Shown one piece after another: positions 716 to 13,667 of a DNA stretch of 32,000 bases (the stretch's first letter is position 1; each line of letters opens with the position of its first letter). Source of the stretch: Gemmata obscuriglobus (GTDB lineage Bacteria; Planctomycetota; Planctomycetia; Gemmatales; Gemmataceae); the NCBI RefSeq assembly GCF_008065095.1, contig NZ_CP042911.1, positions 1,140,001 to 1,172,000 of the forward strand. The letters are read 5' to 3'. The position numbers and the translations under genes were made by a program. The notes under the pieces are model-generated. The model made no database searches, was not told where the DNA came from, and worked only from the letters and a program-made list of their open reading frames with translations.

Positions 716-906
716 TTGTTCAACGCACTCACGTCGCGAACTCCGCGCAAGCCCGCGCGACCGGAGCCGTCGTTCCGTCCGCCCTTGAGCCGCGCCCCGG
801 TGCAACGCCACCTCGGCCCGTCCACGGTGTGCGGTGCCATCAGATAGATGGGGGCCGTGCCAAGTACGCCGCGCGGCTGTAACGGGGGTTACACCGAATC
901 CGGTGG
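687..906 (+). repeat. ~200-bp dispersed repeat, family F, copy 1
   Basis: Aligns by eye along its length with 5822-6028, differing at a handful of substitutions and one short indel block. Both copies begin and end with atccggtg. Both start at or just after the 3' end of a plus-strand gene. A 15-nt exact fragment, gtgcggtgccatcag, recurs at 31133-31147. Confidence 0.85.
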
Positions 907-1135: not shown

Positions 1136-1522
1136 TTACCCGGTGACCGCGGCTACGACCGCACCGGCGGCGCGGAGCGCGTCGGCGGCAGGCTTGCACA
1201 CGGCCGCGAGGCTGTCGAGCCAGCGGGTCACGCGCCCCGGGCGCGCGGGGTCGGGGTCGGTCTTCTTCACCTCGTCCTGAATCTTTCCGACCGTGCCGGC
1301 GGCATCGGCGCGGTCCGGTTCGGCGAGCGTCGCCTGCTTGAGTTCCGCCAGGGCCTTCGTGACCGCGGCCGTGAGGTCGCCCGGCGACGTCTGCGCCGCC
1401 TGAGTCACGTGCGCGATGATCTGTTCCGCGGTGACGCTCGCGCCGCGGCCGATCGCGGACCCGACCACGGTCCCCGAAACGGTGAACGTGTCGCCGCCGG
1501 TGTTCTTGGGCTCGTCGGACAT
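1136..1522 (-). CDS. small protein (128 aa) with an N-terminal Gly/Ser/Val motif shared with the neighbouring giant protein, followed by a helical Ala-rich C-terminal part
   Basis: Internal ATG at 1522 with AGGAG 9 nt upstream (reverse complement of 1523-1540). The longer 218-aa version has an Arg/Gly/Pro-rich, non-protein-like extension. Residues 10-37 (GDTFTVSGTVVGSAIGRGASVTAEQIIA) match residues 898-925 of the 1892-5791 product at 17/28 positions without gaps. Confidence 0.7.
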   Translation of the reverse strand: MSDEPKNTGGDTFTVSGTVVGSAIGRGASVTAEQIIAHVTQAAQTSPGDLTAAVTKALAELKQATLAEPDRADAAGTVGKIQDEVKKTDPDPARPGRVTRWLDSLAAVCKPAADALRAAGAVVAAVTG

Positions 1523-1891
1523 CGGAACGGCTCCTGAAGGTGAGTGCGGTGAAGAACCCCTCCCCAACCCCTCCTCCATGCTCGCCGGTCCTGTCAGCAG
1601 AGCTTCCCGCGGACCGGCGGAGAAGGGAGGGGCTTCAAGCCACTGCGCACCGATTCCGCATCGGAAGCGCGGTTGCTTTGCTCCCCCTCTCTTCTTAGGA
1701 GAGGGGGTTAGGGGGAGAGGTTCTTCGCCCCGCGGACCAGCCGACACGTCGTTACGATCGTACCCGCCGGCGCCCCCGCGCCCAAGGCTCACCGGTGTTA
1801 ATTCTCACAGCGCGAGATCGCGCACCGGGCGCTTGCGTTCGCACCGCCGTTCGGCCAGCATGGGCGAATCATTCCTCTGAGGGTTCGCCCG

Positions 1892-4800
1892 ATGGCCAAG
1901 AAGAAGAAGCCGAAAGCCGCTGCCAAGCCAAAACCGAAACCGAATTCCCTACCAAAGCTACCGGAGAGCGAGAACCCGGACGCCATCCCACCCGGGTTCA
2001 CGCTTAGGCATACGCTCCGCGGGCACACGGGCTGGATTGCTCGGCTCGCGTGGTCGCCTAGTGGACAATTAATTGCAACACCGTCAGATGACACAACGGT
2101 ATTTATATGGGATGCAGAAAAAGGAGAGCATTTACGAACGCTGAAAGGGCACACTTACGGCGCACGCGCGGTATCATGGTCGCCGAACGGGCGATTGCTG
2201 GCGTCATCCGGTATGAACCGACAAATAAAAATATGGAATTTTGTAACTGGTGAACACGTACGCACCCTAGAGGGGCACAGCGCCAACGTGAGCTCCCTGT
2301 CGTGGTCGCCGGATGGGCTGCTTTTGGCATCGGCTGGTTATGACAGCACGATAAGGGTGTGGAATGCCGAAACCAGCCAGCAAGTGCGCATCCTAGAAGG
2401 TCATGCCACGTCTGCTAACGCAACCTCATGGTCCCCAGACGGGCAGCTCCTTGTCTCAGCAGCAAGTGACGCGACGGTACGGGTGTGGGATGCGAAAACC
2501 GGTAAGCAAGTGTGCATCCTGAGAGGCCATACCGAGGATGTCTGCGCGGCGTCATGGTCCCCGAGCGGGCAGCTACTTGCCTCGGCGGCAGGTGACAAGA
2601 CAATACGGGTGTGGGACGCAAGAACCGGTAAGCAAGTGTGCATCCTAGAAGGTCATACGAGAGGGGTCCGTGCCGTATCGTGGTCTCCGGACGGACGGCT
2701 CTTGGCCTCGAAATCCTCTGACGGAACGTTTCGGCTTTGGCGTAGCGACGCTTGGGTACAGGCCGTTGCTCTACCAGAGCCCGCAGCCACGTCTAAGCCC
2801 CCGAGCCTGGCATTTCATCCGTCGCGCCCTGTCCTGGCGACCTTAACTGACGACGACAAGTCGGTTCGGATCTGGGATCTGGACATCGACCTCATCTTGA
2901 GCCGAACCCCAGCCGCACCGCCCACTGCGTATAAGTCGGCGAAGGTGGTCGTCCTCGGCGACAGCAACGTCGGCAAGTCGTGGCTCGCGTCACAACTGTT
3001 CGAGAAGCGCCACCCTACGGAAGACGAGCGCGGGACCACGCACGGGATGCGCATCTGGAAGAAGCCAGCGGGAGAGTTCCACACCAGCGCCGCCGCGCCC
3101 ATCGGCGAGGACCGGGAGGTATTCCTGTGGGACTTTGGCGGACAACCGGAATACCAACTCGTTCACCAGATGTTCCTGCACGACAGCGCCCTCGCGCTGA
3201 TCCTTTTCGACCCGACCCGTAGCAATGCCGAGCGGGATAAGGCCAAGGCGTGGAACCTGCGGCTCGGCAAACAGATCGGCCACCGCACAGTCGTCAAATT
3301 CCTGGTCGGGGCGCAGGTCGATGACGATGCAAAGGCGAAGCTCATCGATCGGGCCGCGATCGATAAGCTTCGCTCCGATTGCGGGTTCAACGACTTCTAC
3401 CCGACCAGCGGCATGACTGGTTACGGGGTCGAGGAGTTGCGTGCGGCGCTCGCCGGAGCCATCGACTGGTCGCTCGGTCAGACCACTCGGCCGGAGTTGT
3501 TCCAGCGCATCCGCGAAGAAATAGATGCTCGGCGAGCCGCGGGCGAGGTCGTCGTCACCCTGCGTGCGTTCAATGACGCGCTGCGCAAGAAGTTCCCCCA
3601 CATCTTCGCGGAAGACGCGGCCCGTGCAGTCACCGACCAACTCGCCGGGCAGGGACTTCTCGCTAAAACGCAAACCCGCGACGGAGGCGAGGCGCTGATC
3701 CTGCGGGTGGATGTGGTCGAGAAGTACGCCGGCTCGCTCATCTTCCTCGCCCGCGACAACCCGCGTGGCGTCCCGGCACTCCCGGAGAGCGACCTCGGCG
3801 TGCGACAAAATACCCTTCCCTGGACGGGAAAAGACCGGCTCGCGTGGGAGCAGGAACGGATCGTTCTGGAGTGCGTGACCGAATTGATGATCCGCCACGG
3901 GGTGTGCTTCCGCCACCAGGGCGTACTGGTATTCCCAACCCTGTTTCCGGAGGCGCAAACAGAAGCCGATGCAGAACCGCTCGCGCACGCCGTACCGCTG
4001 TGGTACGATTTCACCGGCGCCATCGACAACGTGTTTGCGTCACTGGTCAGCGGCCTCATGGTGCTGCACACGTTCGGTACGGGTCGGCTTTTGCCTGGGC
4101 GCGCTGAGTTCGACGACCCGGATCACGGGCTATGTGGACTCCGCCGACTCGCCCGTCCGGGTGGACTCGCTCACCTCGAACTGTTCTTCGGTCCCAAGAC
4201 CGCGCAGCCCCACCGGGATAAGTTCGTCGCCTATGTCGAAGCTCACCTCCGAGAGTACGGCGTGGAGGTCGCCGAATGTCAGGCCATCAAGTGCCCGGGG
4301 TGCGGCAAAGAGATCAACGAGGAGACCGTGCGCGAACGGATCGCCGACGGCAAGGAGGACGTGGTGTGTGGCCGATGTGAGCGCCGGACCCCAATTCAAG
4401 TAAGCTTGCTTGCCGGTGGAATCGCCGAGGTGCGCGAGCGCGACCCGCAGACCGACGTGAAGGTGCTCGCACTACGTCAAGAAATCAAAGAACAACTCGC
4501 GCTTGACGCGTTAATAGCCAAGGCGGTTATCGCGGCGGTAGACGGTGCCCCGCTTGACGCCCGGTCAATTCACATCCACATCGGCGACCGGTTTGATAAC
4601 TCCGGCACCATCACCGGCTCGGCCGTCGGGCGCGAGGCACAAGTAACGGCCCAAGACATCGTTGCCGCGGGGAATACTGCTGCTCGCGTCGCGAAGGCCA
4701 CCCCAGGGGCGGCAGGTGGTGACGTTAAACGCGTCCGCATTCTGCACCTGAGCGACCTGCACTTCACCAAAGGTACCGACTGGCGGCAGCACCTGGACCC

Positions 4801-5791
4801 GCTGCTCCACGACCTCAGCCACGCCGACCTGAAGTGCGACGTGGTTCACCACCTCGTTGTCAGTGGGGACTTCGTGGACAAGGGTGCCGGCGTGGCGTTC
4901 CACCCGGCGCGCGAGTTCGTGTCGGCGCTGCGCGAGCGGCTCGGGATCTCGATCGAGCGCGTGGTGCTGGTGCCCGGCAACCACGATGTGGTGGACGACG
5001 ACGCGTTCTACGAGTGGCGTAGCAAAAAGGACGGGTTGAAGGAGGGAGAGTACACCCCGAAGGGGGACGGGTTTCTAACGCGCAACTCGAAGACCTGGCC
5101 GAAGCGGTTCAAGCCGTTCTCCGACCACCTGTACCACCCCCTGTTCCAGCAGCCGTACCCGCTCAAGCCGGACGACCAGGGGCAAGGGTTCCCGACGGGC
5201 CGCACCAACGTGCAGTTCCTCGCGTTCAACTCCGCGTGGGCCGTGGACCAGACGGACCGCAAGCGGAGCGGGCTGCACCCCGGGGCGCTGCTGAAGGGCA
5301 TCGGCGCCGCGGACGGACACGAGAAGAATCTCCCCGGCCTGCGCCCCCCACTACGGGTGGCGGTGTGGCACCACGCGCTGATGCATCCGGACGGAATGAA
5401 GGACGAGTCGCCGGTGGAGCACCTGACGAACGCCGGAGTGCGGATCATATTGCACGGGGACGTTCACGAGGCGAACCCGGCGGCGAACCCGTTCCGCTGG
5501 CCCGGGCTGGTGGTGCTCGGGGCCGGGGCCTTCGGGGCTGAAGCGACGGCCCGCCCGGAATCGATCCCGGGTTTGTACCAGGTGATCGAGTTGTACACCG
5601 GCGACGGCCCGGGCGGGTACGAGTGGGCACGGGTCCACACCCGCGCCCGCGCGAAGGTCAACGGCCCCTGGGAGGGCTGGTACAACTGGCGTGACCCGGA
5701 CGGTGGAAACCGGCGGGTGTCGCACTTCGACGTGGACCTGAAGACCGGCGCCCCGCGCCCGGCCGCCGCGCGCCCGGCGGCCCGAAGCTAA
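1892..5791 (+). CDS. multidomain ROCO-like protein: WD40 repeats, Roc-type small GTPase, COR-like region, zinc ribbon, calcineurin-like metallophosphoesterase (1299 aa)
   Basis: ATG with GAGGG about 10 nt upstream. aa 38-330: seven WD40 blades (GH...SWSPDGxLLAS...DxT[IV]R[IV]WD). aa 349-526: GTPase with G1 GDSNVGKS, G3 DFGGQ, degenerate G4 VGAQVD and G5-like TSG. aa 527-795: COR-like, judged by position and length only. aa 801-829: CPGC-x21-CGRC zinc ribbon. aa 898-925: the shared motif. aa 947-1250: metallophosphoesterase with all motifs intact (LSDLHF, SGDFVDKG, PGNHD, WHH, LHGDVHE). Confidence 0.95.
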   Translation: MAKKKKPKAAAKPKPKPNSLPKLPESENPDAIPPGFTLRHTLRGHTGWIARLAWSPSGQLIATPSDDTTVFIWDAEKGEHLRTLKGHTYGARAVSWSPNGRLLASSGMNRQIKIWNFVTGEHVRTLEGHSANVSSLSWSPDGLLLASAGYDSTIRVWNAETSQQVRILEGHATSANATSWSPDGQLLVSAASDATVRVWDAKTGKQVCILRGHTEDVCAASWSPSGQLLASAAGDKTIRVWDARTGKQVCILEGHTRGVRAVSWSPDGRLLASKSSDGTFRLWRSDAWVQAVALPEPAATSKPPSLAFHPSRPVLATLTDDDKSVRIWDLDIDLILSRTPAAPPTAYKSAKVVVLGDSNVGKSWLASQLFEKRHPTEDERGTTHGMRIWKKPAGEFHTSAAAPIGEDREVFLWDFGGQPEYQLVHQMFLHDSALALILFDPTRSNAERDKAKAWNLRLGKQIGHRTVVKFLVGAQVDDDAKAKLIDRAAIDKLRSDCGFNDFYPTSGMTGYGVEELRAALAGAIDWSLGQTTRPELFQRIREEIDARRAAGEVVVTLRAFNDALRKKFPHIFAEDAARAVTDQLAGQGLLAKTQTRDGGEALILRVDVVEKYAGSLIFLARDNPRGVPALPESDLGVRQNTLPWTGKDRLAWEQERIVLECVTELMIRHGVCFRHQGVLVFPTLFPEAQTEADAEPLAHAVPLWYDFTGAIDNVFASLVSGLMVLHTFGTGRLLPGRAEFDDPDHGLCGLRRLARPGGLAHLELFFGPKTAQPHRDKFVAYVEAHLREYGVEVAECQAIKCPGCGKEINEETVRERIADGKEDVVCGRCERRTPIQVSLLAGGIAEVRERDPQTDVKVLALRQEIKEQLALDALIAKAVIAAVDGAPLDARSIHIHIGDRFDNSGTITGSAVGREAQVTAQDIVAAGNTAARVAKATPGAAGGDVKRVRILHLSDLHFTKGTDWRQHLDPLLHDLSHADLKCDVVHHLVVSGDFVDKGAGVAFHPAREFVSALRERLGISIERVVLVPGNHDVVDDDAFYEWRSKKDGLKEGEYTPKGDGFLTRNSKTWPKRFKPFSDHLYHPLFQQPYPLKPDDQGQGFPTGRTNVQFLAFNSAWAVDQTDRKRSGLHPGALLKGIGAADGHEKNLPGLRPPLRVAVWHHALMHPDGMKDESPVEHLTNAGVRIILHGDVHEANPAANPFRWPGLVVLGAGAFGAEATARPESIPGLYQVIELYTGDGPGGYEWARVHTRARAKVNGPWEGWYNWRDPDGGNRRVSHFDVDLKTGAPRPAAARPAARS

Positions 5792-5821: not shown

Positions 5822-6028
5822 ATCCGGTGAACGCGGGATGGGTCGGCTCGCACTCACGTCGCGAACTCCGCGCAAACCCCGCGCCGACCGGAGCCGTCGT
5901 TCCGTCCGCTCCTGAGCCGCGCCCCGGCGCAACGCCACCTCGGCCCGGCTACGGTGTGCGGTGCCATCAGATAGATAGGGGCCGGGTGCGCCGCGCGGCT
6001 GTAACGGGGGTTACACCGAATCCGGTGG
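5822..6028 (+). repeat. ~200-bp dispersed repeat, family F, copy 2
   Basis: See 687-906. This copy starts 31 nt after the stop of the 1299-aa gene. Confidence 0.85.
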
Positions 6029-6043
6029 AATCGTGCCTTTGCC

Positions 6044-6148
6044 GGAGCGCGGGCCTCTGGCCCGCTGGTACGCCCCAAAAGTGAGCCTCGGGTACACGCG
6101 CAGCCGAGCCGAACCGCGTAACAACAGCGGGCCAGAGGCCCGCGCTCC
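6044..6148. repeat. 24-bp perfect inverted repeat with a 57-nt spacer
   Basis: ggagcgcgggcctctggcccgctg (6044-6067) and cagcgggccagaggcccgcgctcc (6125-6148) are exact reverse complements. Confidence 0.9.
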
Positions 6149-6250
6149 AGAAAAGGCCACAACGCACACGCGCTTCAACCGGGTCGGCTACCACACTCGC
6201 GGTACGAGTACAGCCGATGGGGGCACGACGAGACACCCGCTGGCACCGTC

Positions 6251-11154: not shown

Positions 11155-11508
11155 GGTCTGGCCTTGAGTGTGGTCCGCTCGCTCCGCGAGCGGTCGCGTT
11201 ACTGCGGGTGACGGTATGAGAAGCTCACCGAGGCGCGAAGCACCGCTCGCGGAGCGAGCGGGCCACACTCAAATCTGTAGCCGGCCTCTGTGAGGCCGGT
11301 ACACGGGTGGGGTCGCACCGGCCTCACAGAGGCCGGTTACAGAATACCGCCACCGTCCAACCGAATCCGGTATGACCGGCGACGGTTGCCGAGGTGTCTG
11401 GGTCTTGAGGGTGGTCCGCTCGCTCCGCGAGCGGTCGCGTGGTCGTGAGTGACGGTATGAGAAGCTCACCGAGGCGCGAAGCACCGCTCGCGGAGCGAGC
11501 GGGCCACA
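11155..11508. repeat. nested repeat block: two ~113-bp direct repeats (11155-11267, 11395-11508), each internally palindromic, flanking an inverted pair of ccggcctc-nnn-gaggccgg hairpins (11280-11298, 11317-11335)
   Basis: The unit gtctgg..cttgag.gtggtccgctcgctccgcgagcggtcgcg...gtgacggtatgagaagctcaccgaggcgcgaagcaccgctcgcggagcgagcgggccacac occurs twice. Within a unit, gtggtccgctcgctccgcgagcggt pairs with accgctcgcggagcgagcgggccac with one mismatch. Confidence 0.9.
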
Positions 11509-11540
11509 CGGGAGGTCGGAACCGGCCCACACCGTTCGCA

Positions 11541-13667
11541 TCACTTCTTATCTTTCTTGGGCTCTTCCTTCTTGGGTTCCGTCTTCTTGGGTTCGGGCTT
11601 CTTCGCCTCTTCCTTCTTGGGCTCGGGCTTCTTGGGCTCCTCCTTCTTGGGCTCGGTCACGTCCAGCGTGACCAGCAGCGTGACCGCGAAGTCCTTTCCG
11701 CCCACCTTGGTCGTCGCGCGGAACACCAGCGGCGTCGGCCCCGCGGCGGCGCCGGGCTGCACGGTCAAACCGATCTCGCCCTTGGCCTGCCCCTTCGCGA
11801 CCGGCTTCACGGCGGGCACCACCGTCGGCGGGACGAGCAGCGGCGCGAGCGCGATGTCGCCGTCGGCGCCGGCCCCGCGGGTCACGTCCAGAACGATCTT
11901 GCCGGCCTTGCCCTTCTCCACCGCGGCCGGGTCGAACGTCGCCTTGAGCGCGAACGGCGGCGCGTCGGTCACCCCGACGGCGCACCGGTCGAGCAGCTCG
12001 GCCGGCGGGTTCGGGATGCCGCCCAGGTTCGCCTTCACCGCGTCGGTCAGCGTGCCGTAGCGCGTCACGGTCGCGCCGTCGGCGGCGATCGTGCCCTTCA
12101 CCCGGAACGGGTACGCGCCGGGCTTGGTCCCCGCCTTCACTTCGAGCGGCACGAACGCGACCGTCTGCCCCGCGGGGAGCGTCGCCTTACCGCCCGCAAC
12201 CGCGCCGCCGTCGATGCTCAGGTCCACCGGACCGGCGTACCCGTTGAGGCGGGTCACGGTGGCCATCACCGCGGTGGCGCCCCCGGCGGGCGCTTCGGCG
12301 CGGTCGAGCGCGAGCGCGACGGCGAAGTCCGGGCCGGCGGGGGCGACCGTGAGCAGGTAGACCTCGTTCGGGCCGTGGAGGAAGTTCTGGTGCTCGCAGG
12401 CGAGCACGTACTCGCCGTCGGCGGCGGGCGTGAACTCGAACCGGTTGACCGGCGCCGCCGGGTTGCTCCGGGCCACCTCGGCGCCCTTGGCGTCGAGCAC
12501 CCGCACCAGCACCTCGGCCGGCGAGTTCACCTCGAACGTGGACACCGACACCGCGAGCTTCTGCCCCTTCTTCCCGGTCACGGCGAAGTGGTCCACGTCG
12601 TTCGGCTTGTCGAACCGCCCGGACGCGCCGCCGGGCACCGGGAGCTTGTTCGCTTTCGCGCGGTCGTCGTTCGGCTCCTGCTCGGTGATCTGCGGGTGGT
12701 CGGTGACCAGCACCGGGACCGGCCAGCCCGCGTCCTTGCCGGCAGACGGCACCGCGTAGACCGCGCCGCCCGCGTCCTTCGGCACCGCGAGGGCCGTCGC
12801 GGGGACCGTTTCGGGGCCGGCGAACCCGACCTTCGCTTCCTTGCCCCGCTCGGCCGCAAGGGGGAACGCGGTGGTGGCGCCGGGGAAGTCGCCGATCCGG
12901 AGCCGGTAGAAGTAGTCGCCCCCGCCGCGGTGCGTGGTGTCGCGCACCTCCACGAGCACCTCCCCCGCCTCCTTGAACGTGTGCGCGAGCCGGCAGTCGC
13001 CCTGGAGCCCGGGCGTGTCGTCAGCGTACAGGTCGATCAGCTCGCGCCGCGTCTTGGCGTCGTGGAGCACGACGATCGGGTCGAGCGGCGACCCGATGCG
13101 CCGGGCCAGCACCTCGAACGCGAGCTTCTGCCCCGCGGCCACCTTCACCTTGTAGAAGTCCGACGTTTCGGCCGCGACGGAGCCGCTCGCCACGCACGGC
13201 ACCGGCACCGCCTGCGCGGCGTCCTTCGAGCGGCCCGCGCCGGTCGCGGCGACCGGCGGGAGCGGGTCCACCACGAACGGGCGGGCGTTCGAGGCGCCGT
13301 GCTTGGTCGCCGCCCGCACCGTGTACAGCCCGGGCGGGCACTGCGGGTCCACCTTCACCTTCACGCGCAGCTTCGCGGGGTCGGTGCCGTTCTTGTTGTC
13401 GGTCGGGACGCTCACCCGGCCCGGGCAGCTCAGGAGCACGCCCGCGGGGTCGGCGAGGTTGGTGCCGGTGAGGACGAGTTCCACCTCGTCGCCGGGCCGC
13501 GCGCCCAGGTTCGCGGGCGTCGTGAGCGTGGGGGCTTGCGGCGCGGGGGTGACGACGGGCGCTTTCGGCTGCGCCCGCGCGACGCGGCCGTCGGTCGAGA
13601 GCATCGCGGCCGCGCCGGCCGCGAACCCGGCGAGCGCGAGCGTCCAGGTGAGACGTCGAGATTGCAT
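11541..13667 (-). CDS. secreted multi-domain beta-sandwich protein with pre-peptidase-C-terminal (PPC)-like modules and a Lys/Glu/Pro-rich C-terminal tail (708 aa)
   Basis: ATG at 13667 gives the signal-like MQSRRLTWTLALAGFAAGAAAML. There are two PPC-like signatures (DFYKVKVAAGQKLAFEV...YFYRLRIG and DVDHFAVTGKKGQKLAVSV...VYLLTV). The tail is KKEEPKKPEPKKEEAKKPEPKKTEPKKEEPKKDKK. The function is not known. Confidence 0.85.
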   Translation of the reverse strand: MQSRRLTWTLALAGFAAGAAAMLSTDGRVARAQPKAPVVTPAPQAPTLTTPANLGARPGDEVELVLTGTNLADPAGVLLSCPGRVSVPTDNKNGTDPAKLRVKVKVDPQCPPGLYTVRAATKHGASNARPFVVDPLPPVAATGAGRSKDAAQAVPVPCVASGSVAAETSDFYKVKVAAGQKLAFEVLARRIGSPLDPIVVLHDAKTRRELIDLYADDTPGLQGDCRLAHTFKEAGEVLVEVRDTTHRGGGDYFYRLRIGDFPGATTAFPLAAERGKEAKVGFAGPETVPATALAVPKDAGGAVYAVPSAGKDAGWPVPVLVTDHPQITEQEPNDDRAKANKLPVPGGASGRFDKPNDVDHFAVTGKKGQKLAVSVSTFEVNSPAEVLVRVLDAKGAEVARSNPAAPVNRFEFTPAADGEYVLACEHQNFLHGPNEVYLLTVAPAGPDFAVALALDRAEAPAGGATAVMATVTRLNGYAGPVDLSIDGGAVAGGKATLPAGQTVAFVPLEVKAGTKPGAYPFRVKGTIAADGATVTRYGTLTDAVKANLGGIPNPPAELLDRCAVGVTDAPPFALKATFDPAAVEKGKAGKIVLDVTRGAGADGDIALAPLLVPPTVVPAVKPVAKGQAKGEIGLTVQPGAAAGPTPLVFRATTKVGGKDFAVTLLVTLDVTEPKKEEPKKPEPKKEEAKKPEPKKTEPKKEEPKKDKK

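Follow-up and report, generated by a model that had tools for sequence, protein, structure and literature searches.

A 28-residue motif common to a small protein and a neighbouring WD40-Roc GTPase-phosphoesterase of Gemmata obscuriglobus

Why should two adjacent genes, whose products are otherwise unrelated, share a gapless stretch of 28 amino acids? The question is raised by a 32,000-nucleotide stretch of the Gemmata obscuriglobus genome (contig NZ_CP042911.1, positions 1,140,001 to 1,172,000; "the window", in whose numbering positions are given below), where a small gene and a giant gene diverge from an intergenic region of 369 nt (1523..1891). The small gene (1136..1522, minus strand) encodes 128 aa plus a stop codon; its ATG at 1522 has an AGGAG 8 nt upstream, and the identical protein is annotated in G. 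obscuriglobus as hypothetical protein GobsT_09470. The giant gene (1892..5791, plus strand) encodes 1299 aa plus a stop, arranged as WD40 propeller, Roc GTPase, post-Roc region, zinc ribbon, long helix, an insertion that carries the motif, and metallophosphoesterase. The motif occupies residues 10-37 of the small protein (1412..1495, minus strand; GDTFTVSGTVVGSAIGRGASVTAEQIIA) and residues 898-925 of the giant protein (4583..4666, plus strand; GDRFDNSGTITGSAVGREAQVTAQDIVA). An earlier note, made from the sequence alone, had drawn attention to these two segments and proposed that the proteins recognise each other through them.

The resemblance itself withstood several kinds of comparison. Whole-protein BLASTP of the small against the giant protein yielded a single significant segment, gapless, with 17/28 residues identical and 21/28 positive (E=2e-7), and together with the translations it reproduced the coordinates and identities of the earlier note. 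All remaining segments had E>=0.88, in agreement with its statement that the two proteins are unrelated elsewhere. In a six-frame scan of the window for 28-mers (background mean -20, sd 10.6) the two copies scored 133-138 against each other's templates and the next-best 28-mer scored 31, and a loose regular expression matched these two copies only. The motif is thus not recurrent in the window, and the BLASTP score and the six-frame scan rule out a low-complexity segment, the explanation against which the earlier note had measured its own claim. The high GC content of the genome and the abundance of alanine and glycine in both proteins might be taken to favour a chance or compositional match between two Gly/Ala/Val-rich segments. 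We give that explanation practically no credence, because the BLASTP score is composition-adjusted, the next 28-mer lies far below the pair, independent profiles recover both copies, and the motif is conserved in orthologues of both proteins. One such profile (A6), made from six distant family members of which none belongs to the Gemmata clade, matched the small protein end to end with 68 bits and the giant protein at residues 894-927 exclusively (25.5 bits, E=4e-10 as a single-sequence E-value). The consensus of the motif is h-G-D-x-h-x-h-x-G-x-V-x-G-S-A-h-G-x-x-A-x-h-x-A-x-x-I.

At the nucleotide level the two copies agree at 49/84 bases, and 12 of the 17 identical residues are encoded by different codons. 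These figures rule out a recent DNA copy or gene conversion as the origin of the pair. They indicate that the similarity is old and has been held at the protein level, which supports a reading in which the two copies dock with each other. That the motif is a real, selected element common to both genes is, in our judgement, very likely.

In the small protein the motif is no free-standing tag; it proved to be the N-terminal signature of a conserved module of ~120 aa that makes up the whole protein. We searched 1.84 billion representative proteins with a 36-column motif profile (A2) built from small and giant proteins of the Gemmata clade only, and obtained 45 matches at E<=1e-3. In most of them the motif leads into 86-92 residues alignable to the remainder of the small protein (residues 38-128; 1139..1411, minus strand), which the family alignment (A4) and a low-confidence AlphaFold model delimit as a helical domain. 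The full module, motif plus ~90-aa helical domain, was present in 55/66 family proteins collected, where 0-490 aa precede it and it ends 0-8 residues from the C-terminus. The small protein is a stand-alone, complete copy of this C-terminal module, matched by the A4 profile over its full length (126 bits). Eight metagenomic homologues (54-66% identity) conserve both the motif and the remainder of the protein. The motif is N-terminal to the helical domain in 55/55 full modules, so that the orientation that had been called unusual is the rule in the family: N-terminal to the helical domain on one side, and at the C-terminal end of the partner's sensor part on the other.

Helical domains of the family have in common an acidic region (DLxExDKxDhxDxLxKLxEELxKP), a conserved arginine and a final helix rich in Ala, Ser, Gly, Val and Ile; in the small protein about five helices are predicted, the last of them Ala/Gly/Val-rich. 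Searches of the small protein against Pfam, NCBIfam and PADLOC gave no family match. A profile search of the Protein Data Bank with the module returned only designed helical repeats and coiled coils, matches of a compositional kind among which there was no informative relative. A literature search on the motif strings, the module, DUF5955/DUF8370/DUF8371, and ROCO proteins with amyloid or phage defence found no report. The module is unannotated and without an established family name. A scan of metagenomes for relatives of the small protein yielded one locus (L006), a disrupted copy at 1383-1835 of its contig, in which a run of short peptide repeats (SLARI / SFAQG type) stands in place of the N-terminal half with its motif, and homology is confined to the C-terminal 68 residues.

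The proteins that carry the module at their C-terminus are diverse, and their N-terminal parts are of sensor or scaffold type. Pentapeptide repeats precede it in P0132 and P0169 and TPR in P0159; P0137, P0143, P0160 and P0164 have hydrophobic N-terminal stretches that probably span the membrane; and in some members a 500-aa N-terminal region is annotated, in precomputed annotations, as DUF8370/DUF8371. ROCO proteins are Roc-COR GTPases, relatives of LRRK2, and prokaryotic ROCO proteins resemble the giant protein in that a Roc GTPase is flanked by repeat and output domains. In P0134 the COR-A (1.2e-26) and COR-B (3.3e-18) domains of such a protein are fused to the module, which lies directly at the C-terminus. 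P0134 would in effect be a fused version of the Gemmata pair. The Gemmata giant differs from ROCO proteins in its output, which is a metallophosphoesterase and, if the interpretation below holds, a recruited small protein as well.

Does the motif recur in neighbouring genes elsewhere? The neighbourhood sample consists of three independent contigs with stand-alone module genes, and the A2 profile contains none of their sequences. With this profile, a second motif was found in a neighbour gene at all three loci. At L011, a 520-aa DUF8370/8371 partner ends with the motif, and 18 nt downstream a 118-aa module gene opens with its own motif. At L012, the motif likewise closes a homologue of that partner, and a 91-aa gene and the 117-aa module gene come next, in that order. 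At L009/L010, a 117-aa module gene precedes a gene for a 229-aa protein that bears a second complete module. In addition, P0163 has a C-terminal motif, and a 119-aa gene starts 1 nt later as read from the gene table. Over 519 aa the L011 partner shares 45% identity with P0162, whose sequence extends into the helical domain, and the same components therefore exist both fused and split, with the motif on each half of the split pair. A frameshift artefact as the cause of the split pairs is ruled out by the two distinct motif copies in each. The partner proteins of L009, L011 and L012 had no match in the local copy of Pfam.

Motifs within a pair are also more alike than motifs of different pairs. 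Within-pair identity is the row maximum in four independent lineages, for which the true assignment of partners to modules has the highest summed motif identity (1 of 24 permutations); when six pairs are considered, the count is 2 of 720. In G. obscuriglobus, motif position 21 is V in both proteins, and in the pairs of two relatives (L005 and L007) it is L in both. The claim that the motif behaves as an element common to adjacent gene products was thus borne out by its recurrence at 3/3 loci, by the split and fused forms and by the within-pair similarity, and these three findings support its being a recognition element between the products of adjacent genes.

Two side observations concern these loci. 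At L009, a third gene of the cluster (11179-12333) encodes a protein of 384 aa without a Pfam match, in which a stretch close to the N-terminus, VSITHIAGDAVNCAIGAGASLTGRDLLT, weakly resembles the motif (E=0.05 with A2, 1e-3 with A4). At L011 (1-20357), the split pair lies among genes for an integrase, ParA/ParB, a TraG-type coupling protein, an RPA replication protein and a ParD-PIN pair, a gene content that marks the context as plasmid- or ICE-like (resembling an integrative and conjugative element).

Within-pair similarity bears on a further idea, in which a third factor recognises the motif as a tag: a common site for a processing protease, a chaperone or sorting machinery that both proteins carry and that brings them into no contact. 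In the fused proteins (P0130-P0170) a Met stands directly before the motif (HMGD, QMGD, VMGD), precisely where the stand-alone module genes start (MGDK...; for example L009 9998-10093). This Met may serve as an internal start, mark a processing point or have a structural role, and a processing point at the conserved H/x-M-G-D is what the idea of a tag would lead one to expect. In related conflict systems, effectors are known to be set free by proteolysis (PMC7159879; 10.1101/2025.11.14.688446). A common tag predicts no similarity within pairs, however, and neither a protease nor any other conserved third gene was found in the four neighbourhoods examined. We therefore rate this explanation as highly improbable.

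On balance, we think it probable that the motif mediates recognition between the small and giant proteins by docking like with like. In such a system the motif would couple a sensor/NTPase protein to a small C-terminal module consisting of motif and helical domain, and the giant protein would have acquired the motif alone, as an insertion just past its GTPase/Zn-ribbon/helix core. The WD40 sensor and the GTPase switch might make the giant protein self-associate and so gather its motifs; the gathered motifs could then pair or stack, strand on strand, with that of the small protein, whose helical domain would be recruited or activated as a second output, effector or adaptor, beside the fused phosphoesterase. 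A role of the helical domain as executioner or adaptor is plausible from its position, which is always terminal, and from its lack of a catalytic signature. The earlier note had left open whether the small protein is a second effector, an adaptor or an inhibitor; the data fit a downstream effector or adaptor of the GTPase protein, in a partnership that, as described below, is not obligate.

How did the motif come to lie in the giant protein? A search with its residues 600-1299 collected 120 relatives (P0010-P0129), mostly WD40-Roc-phosphoesterase proteins. The linker from the zinc ribbon to the LHLSDLH motif of the phosphoesterase is 121-127 aa long in P0010-P0016, P0020 and P0041, and 52-72 aa in all remaining relatives in which both landmarks were located. 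This contrast identifies the motif-bearing stretch of ~60 aa (residues ~885-945, limits approximate; 4544..4726, plus strand) as an insertion specific to the closest Gemmataceae relatives, and matches to the motif profile among the 120 relatives are confined to the same long-linker proteins. The description of the motif as an element of the linker before the effector domain is accordingly retained, with the addition that it belongs to a lineage-specific insertion. The motif is degenerate in P0012 and P0013, and P0016 keeps the insertion, in which the motif is unrecognisable.

Conservation of the locus is uneven. The divergent arrangement of small open reading frame (ORF) and giant gene is preserved in the relatives L005 and L007. 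The small ORF of L005, however, breaks off after 33 aa, directly past the motif, and that of L007 has lost the helical domain and has a degraded motif; L008 has no small gene within 8 kb. The giant proteins of these three relatives nonetheless retain good motifs (57-64 bits). The decay of the small gene while the giant motif persists implies that the partnership is not obligate: the small protein is either dispensable for the giant protein or replaced in trans by another module protein. The L004 giant gene has been broken up by transposases and carries a degenerate motif, and no small gene is present. The giant homologues of L004 (3024-7808) and L008 (2893-4959), from two Gemmataceae metagenome-assembled genomes, look fragmented, with DDE transposases inside or beside them.

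These findings bring up an evolutionary leftover that acts in cis, in which the motif is the N-terminal cap or first structural element of the module, and a fragment of the neighbouring gene or of one of its paralogues recombined illegitimately into the tolerant linker of the giant protein, to serve there as a spacer or local structure that does not touch the small protein. The position of the motif in a lineage-specific linker insertion, its persistence where the small gene has decayed or is absent (L005, L007, L008) and its degeneration in P0012, P0013 and P0016 all agree with such an origin, as does the prediction that the second half of the motif begins a helix in both proteins. Several findings speak against it: 17 of 28 residues have been kept while synonymous sites are saturated; motif-only C-termini that adjoin module genes recur in an unrelated partner family (L011, L012); and motif similarity is highest within pairs. 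Nor would a passive leftover account for a split DUF8370/8371 protein with the motif on both halves. A leftover of this kind is, in our view, unlikely.

Like-with-like docking does face difficulties beyond the decay or absence of the small gene in the three relatives with good giant motifs. The permutation test covers only four to six pairs, and within-pair similarity could have another source in common descent within a lineage or in local motif duplications that took place independently. Few neighbourhoods were sampled because the family was not found in the genome, plasmid and viral collections: in genome contigs, searches with the small-protein and the six-sequence module alignments matched patterns of which none was confirmed by tblastn (a search that missed even G. 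obscuriglobus, which reflects a limit of the pattern scan or the collection and is not evidence of absence), and in plasmids, searched by tblastn, and viral contigs there were no matches. The neighbours of the pair in the window encode a PQQ propeller, a rhodanese and a methyltransferase, and do not form a recognisable defence island. The last helix of the Gemmata small protein is only weakly hydrophobic (hydropathy 1.24, compared with 1.4-1.9 in most family members), which leaves a membrane-active role for this protein with a weak basis. Finally, AlphaFold monomers did not contain confident beta structure for the motif. The model of the small protein, made from a 9-sequence alignment, had a pLDDT of 54 overall and below 50 for residues 1-30. 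In that of the giant protein the first half of the motif was predicted as a short, weak hairpin (pLDDT 53-73), and residues 914-936, from the second half of the motif onward, as the start of a helix (pLDDT 80-89).

The same models are relevant to a displacement between unlike partners, in which the motif closes a groove of the helical domain in cis and the motif of the partner competes for it in trans, opening or inhibiting the small protein; the small protein might then just as well inhibit or regulate the giant one. Motif and helical domain adjoin in every case and the module invariably lies at the C-terminus, as this arrangement would have it, and two motifs that must fit the same domain would also be expected to resemble each other within pairs. 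The absence of stable beta structure for the motif from the monomer models points the same way. AlphaFold, however, left the motif undocked on the helical domain (at low confidence, from nine sequences), and the Gly-rich pattern h-x-h-x-G-x-V-x-G appears to resemble beta-arc segments more than a groove-binding peptide. We regard displacement as distinctly unlikely, and it, the leftover in cis and the tag for a third factor are each less probable than docking of like with like.

If the motifs do dock with each other, what form might the contact take? The alternation of aliphatic residues, the invariant glycines and the conserved Asp/Asn would suit an arrangement of three short strands with Gly arcs between them, which resembles one rung of a beta-solenoid or a beta-arch. 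Stacking of such rungs upon self-association of the giant protein would mirror the logic of the HET-S/NWD2 and Bell/NLR pairs. Amyloid-like templating with the helical domain as executioner is, on the present sequence comparisons, a tentative possibility. It is likewise conceivable, if doubtful, that the proteins represent an undescribed amyloid-type signalling family, opposite in orientation to BASS/HET-s, which ties Roc-type GTPases and other scaffolds to a helical executioner.

The giant protein has several further domains. Its WD40 beta-propeller (residues ~38-330; 2003..2881, plus strand; Pfam WD40 E=1.6e-72) has seven repeats, ~44% identical to one another, for which Pfam finds seven stretches. 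With the propeller in frame, the gene encodes the 1299-aa protein and is called so in another assembly (L001); one public annotation (P0010) is a 964-aa metallophosphoesterase that starts past the WD40 region. The Roc/Ras-type GTPase domain (residues ~351-521; 2942..3454, plus strand) was matched by Roc (PF08477, E=8.9e-16, residues ~351-477) and Ras (E=7.7e-12). The ~280 residues that follow Roc are COR-like by position only, as no Pfam COR-A or COR-B match was obtained at E<=0.1. A CxxC...CxxC zinc ribbon was recognised by its sequence pattern (residues 801-829; 4292..4378, plus strand), in a region with a weak match to the NCBIfam model ECs_2282_CxxC (residues 799-832). The Pfam matches of the giant protein were to Roc/Ras, WD40 and Metallophos, and no STAND domain was among them.

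The C-terminal part is a calcineurin-like metallophosphoesterase with a C-terminal beta extension (residues 948-1299; 4733..5788, plus strand), which scored 30.1 bits against PF00149 (gathering cut-off 21.5). Its motifs LHLSDLH, SGD and GNHD are conserved throughout the giant-protein family. The best Foldseek matches of its AlphaFold model (pLDDT 86) were the Bacillus subtilis YydD model 9a6c_B, the cyclic-nucleotide phosphodiesterase Rv0805 and GpdQ, with probability 1.0 for the latter two; the predicted domain superposes less well on Mre11/SbcD nucleases. The enzyme may accordingly act on a nucleotide or phosphodiester and not on DNA ends. Matches to the NCBIfam anti-phage models DS9_1 (E=4.7e-19; 68.6 bits, cut-off 420) and DS8 (44 bits, cut-off 790) lie below the equivalog cut-offs and denote a related domain only; PADLOC matches in the same region were to PDC-S60 and Effector.

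How does the pair compare with known systems in which adjacent gene products have a short motif in common? Bacterial amyloid signalling sequences (BASS) 1-10 were described in Bell domain/NLR pairs (Dyrka et al. 2020, 10.1101/2020.01.06.895854) and BASS11 in the Bab/Agp anti-phage pair (10.1101/2024.11.07.622273). These pairs and HET-S/NWD2 of fungi resemble the Gemmata pair in having a motif of ~25 aa, rich in Gly, small and aliphatic residues, common to adjacent gene products; a small helical protein without catalytic motifs beside a large repeat-containing sensor/NTPase; fused and two-gene versions of the same components; and motifs that are most alike within pairs. In BASS pairs the effector carries the motif C-terminally and the NLR carries it N-terminally, whereas here the order is reversed, with the motif ahead of the helical domain in the module and internal or C-terminal in the partner, and in the giant protein, unlike BASS NLRs, it is followed by a fused enzyme. 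The BASS partner is a NACHT/NB-ARC NLR; here it is a Roc GTPase or a DUF8370/8371, pentapeptide or TPR protein. The BASS effector has a Bell/HeLo domain with an N-terminal hydrophobic helix, but the helical domain described here belongs to no named family apart from a weak resemblance to DUF5955, and its most hydrophobic helix is C-terminal. Bell/NLR pairs are 91% collinear, mostly within 10 bp or overlapping, whereas the Gemmata genes are divergent and 369 nt apart. The module is set apart from BASS1-11 by these descriptions; since the BASS logos are published as figures, identity of sequence is not excluded directly. The BASS preprint (10.1101/2020.01.06.895854) does not mention Planctomycetes, Gemmata or GTPases.

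A second comparison is with effector-associated domains (EADs), through which NTPases or sensors of NTP-dependent conflict systems are coupled to effectors (Kaur, Burroughs, Iyer and Aravind 2020, PMC7159879). There too the same element is found on the NTPase/sensor and on an adjacent separate effector, adjacent copies are more alike than other copies, and the partner domains are diverse. EADs are helical domains, which a related paper (PMC8195603) describes as Death-like adaptors, whereas the shared element here is a Gly-rich segment of 28 aa and the helical domain is not shared. At E<=0.1 the Pfam models for EAD, TCAD and EACC1 gave no match to the module, except TCAD2 in 1/30 members (E=0.014). 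EACC1 is a single conserved transmembrane helix with a central Gly patch that is paired with a caspase-type gene (PMC7159879); the module differs in its approximately five predicted helices, its lack of an NCBIfam or Pfam match and its lack of a caspase neighbour. Membership in EACC1 or the EADs is rejected, as there is no Pfam/NCBIfam match and the shared element is a Gly-rich stretch of 28 aa and no helical domain.

A weak resemblance exists to the uncharacterised Pfam family DUF5955 (PF19380), to which the helical domain of P0135 (residues 137-209) aligns over positions 10-82 of the 88-position model with E=2e-4. The best score, 22.1 bits, is below the gathering cut-off of 27.1, and the 6/30 members that match at E<=0.1 do not include the Gemmata protein. 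By analogy, the system would work like BASS/HET-s pairs and EAD coupling, yet its reversed orientation, its non-STAND partner, the lack of a Bell, HeLo or EAD domain and a shared element that is no helical domain place it outside both.

If docking of like with like is correct, signalling between neighbours through a shared motif extends beyond STAND/NLR receptors and Bell-type effectors, and the same logic operates downstream of Roc-type GTPases and several unrelated scaffolds, in reversed orientation and with another helical output. It would suggest how a bacterial relative of LRRK2-type proteins passes a signal to a separate protein. The Gemmata giant, in which a motif was inserted into an existing sensor-enzyme fusion, would illustrate a simple route to a second output. 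Should the contact be of the amyloid type, G. obscuriglobus would possess two outputs, one through the fused phosphoesterase and one through the helical effector that is recruited, and its system would be the first of this kind in Planctomycetes. The A2 and A4 profiles can serve for further searches, and the natural split and fused pairs make the docking hypothesis directly testable.

Some features of the locus lie outside the two genes. The intergenic region 1523..1891 was searched for sigma-70-like promoter and terminator matches, and none was found. A direct repeat of ~183 nt flanks the two-gene cassette on both sides (724..906 and 5849..6028, plus strand; the right copy is 94-97% identical to the left) and has two copies only in the 32 kb. 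L002, a short-read contig from the same genome, ends near both copies and L001 near the right-hand one, which suggests a multi-copy element or the boundary of a mobile cassette. To the left, a long hairpin occupies positions 12-146 (arms 62 nt, 82% complementary, spacing 11 nt); the matches of this region (positions 1-189) to Rfam miRNA families were sub-threshold and are spurious in a bacterium. Directly past the right copy of the direct repeat, an inverted repeat spans 6035-6157, with arms of 33 nt that are 94% complementary and 57 nt apart.

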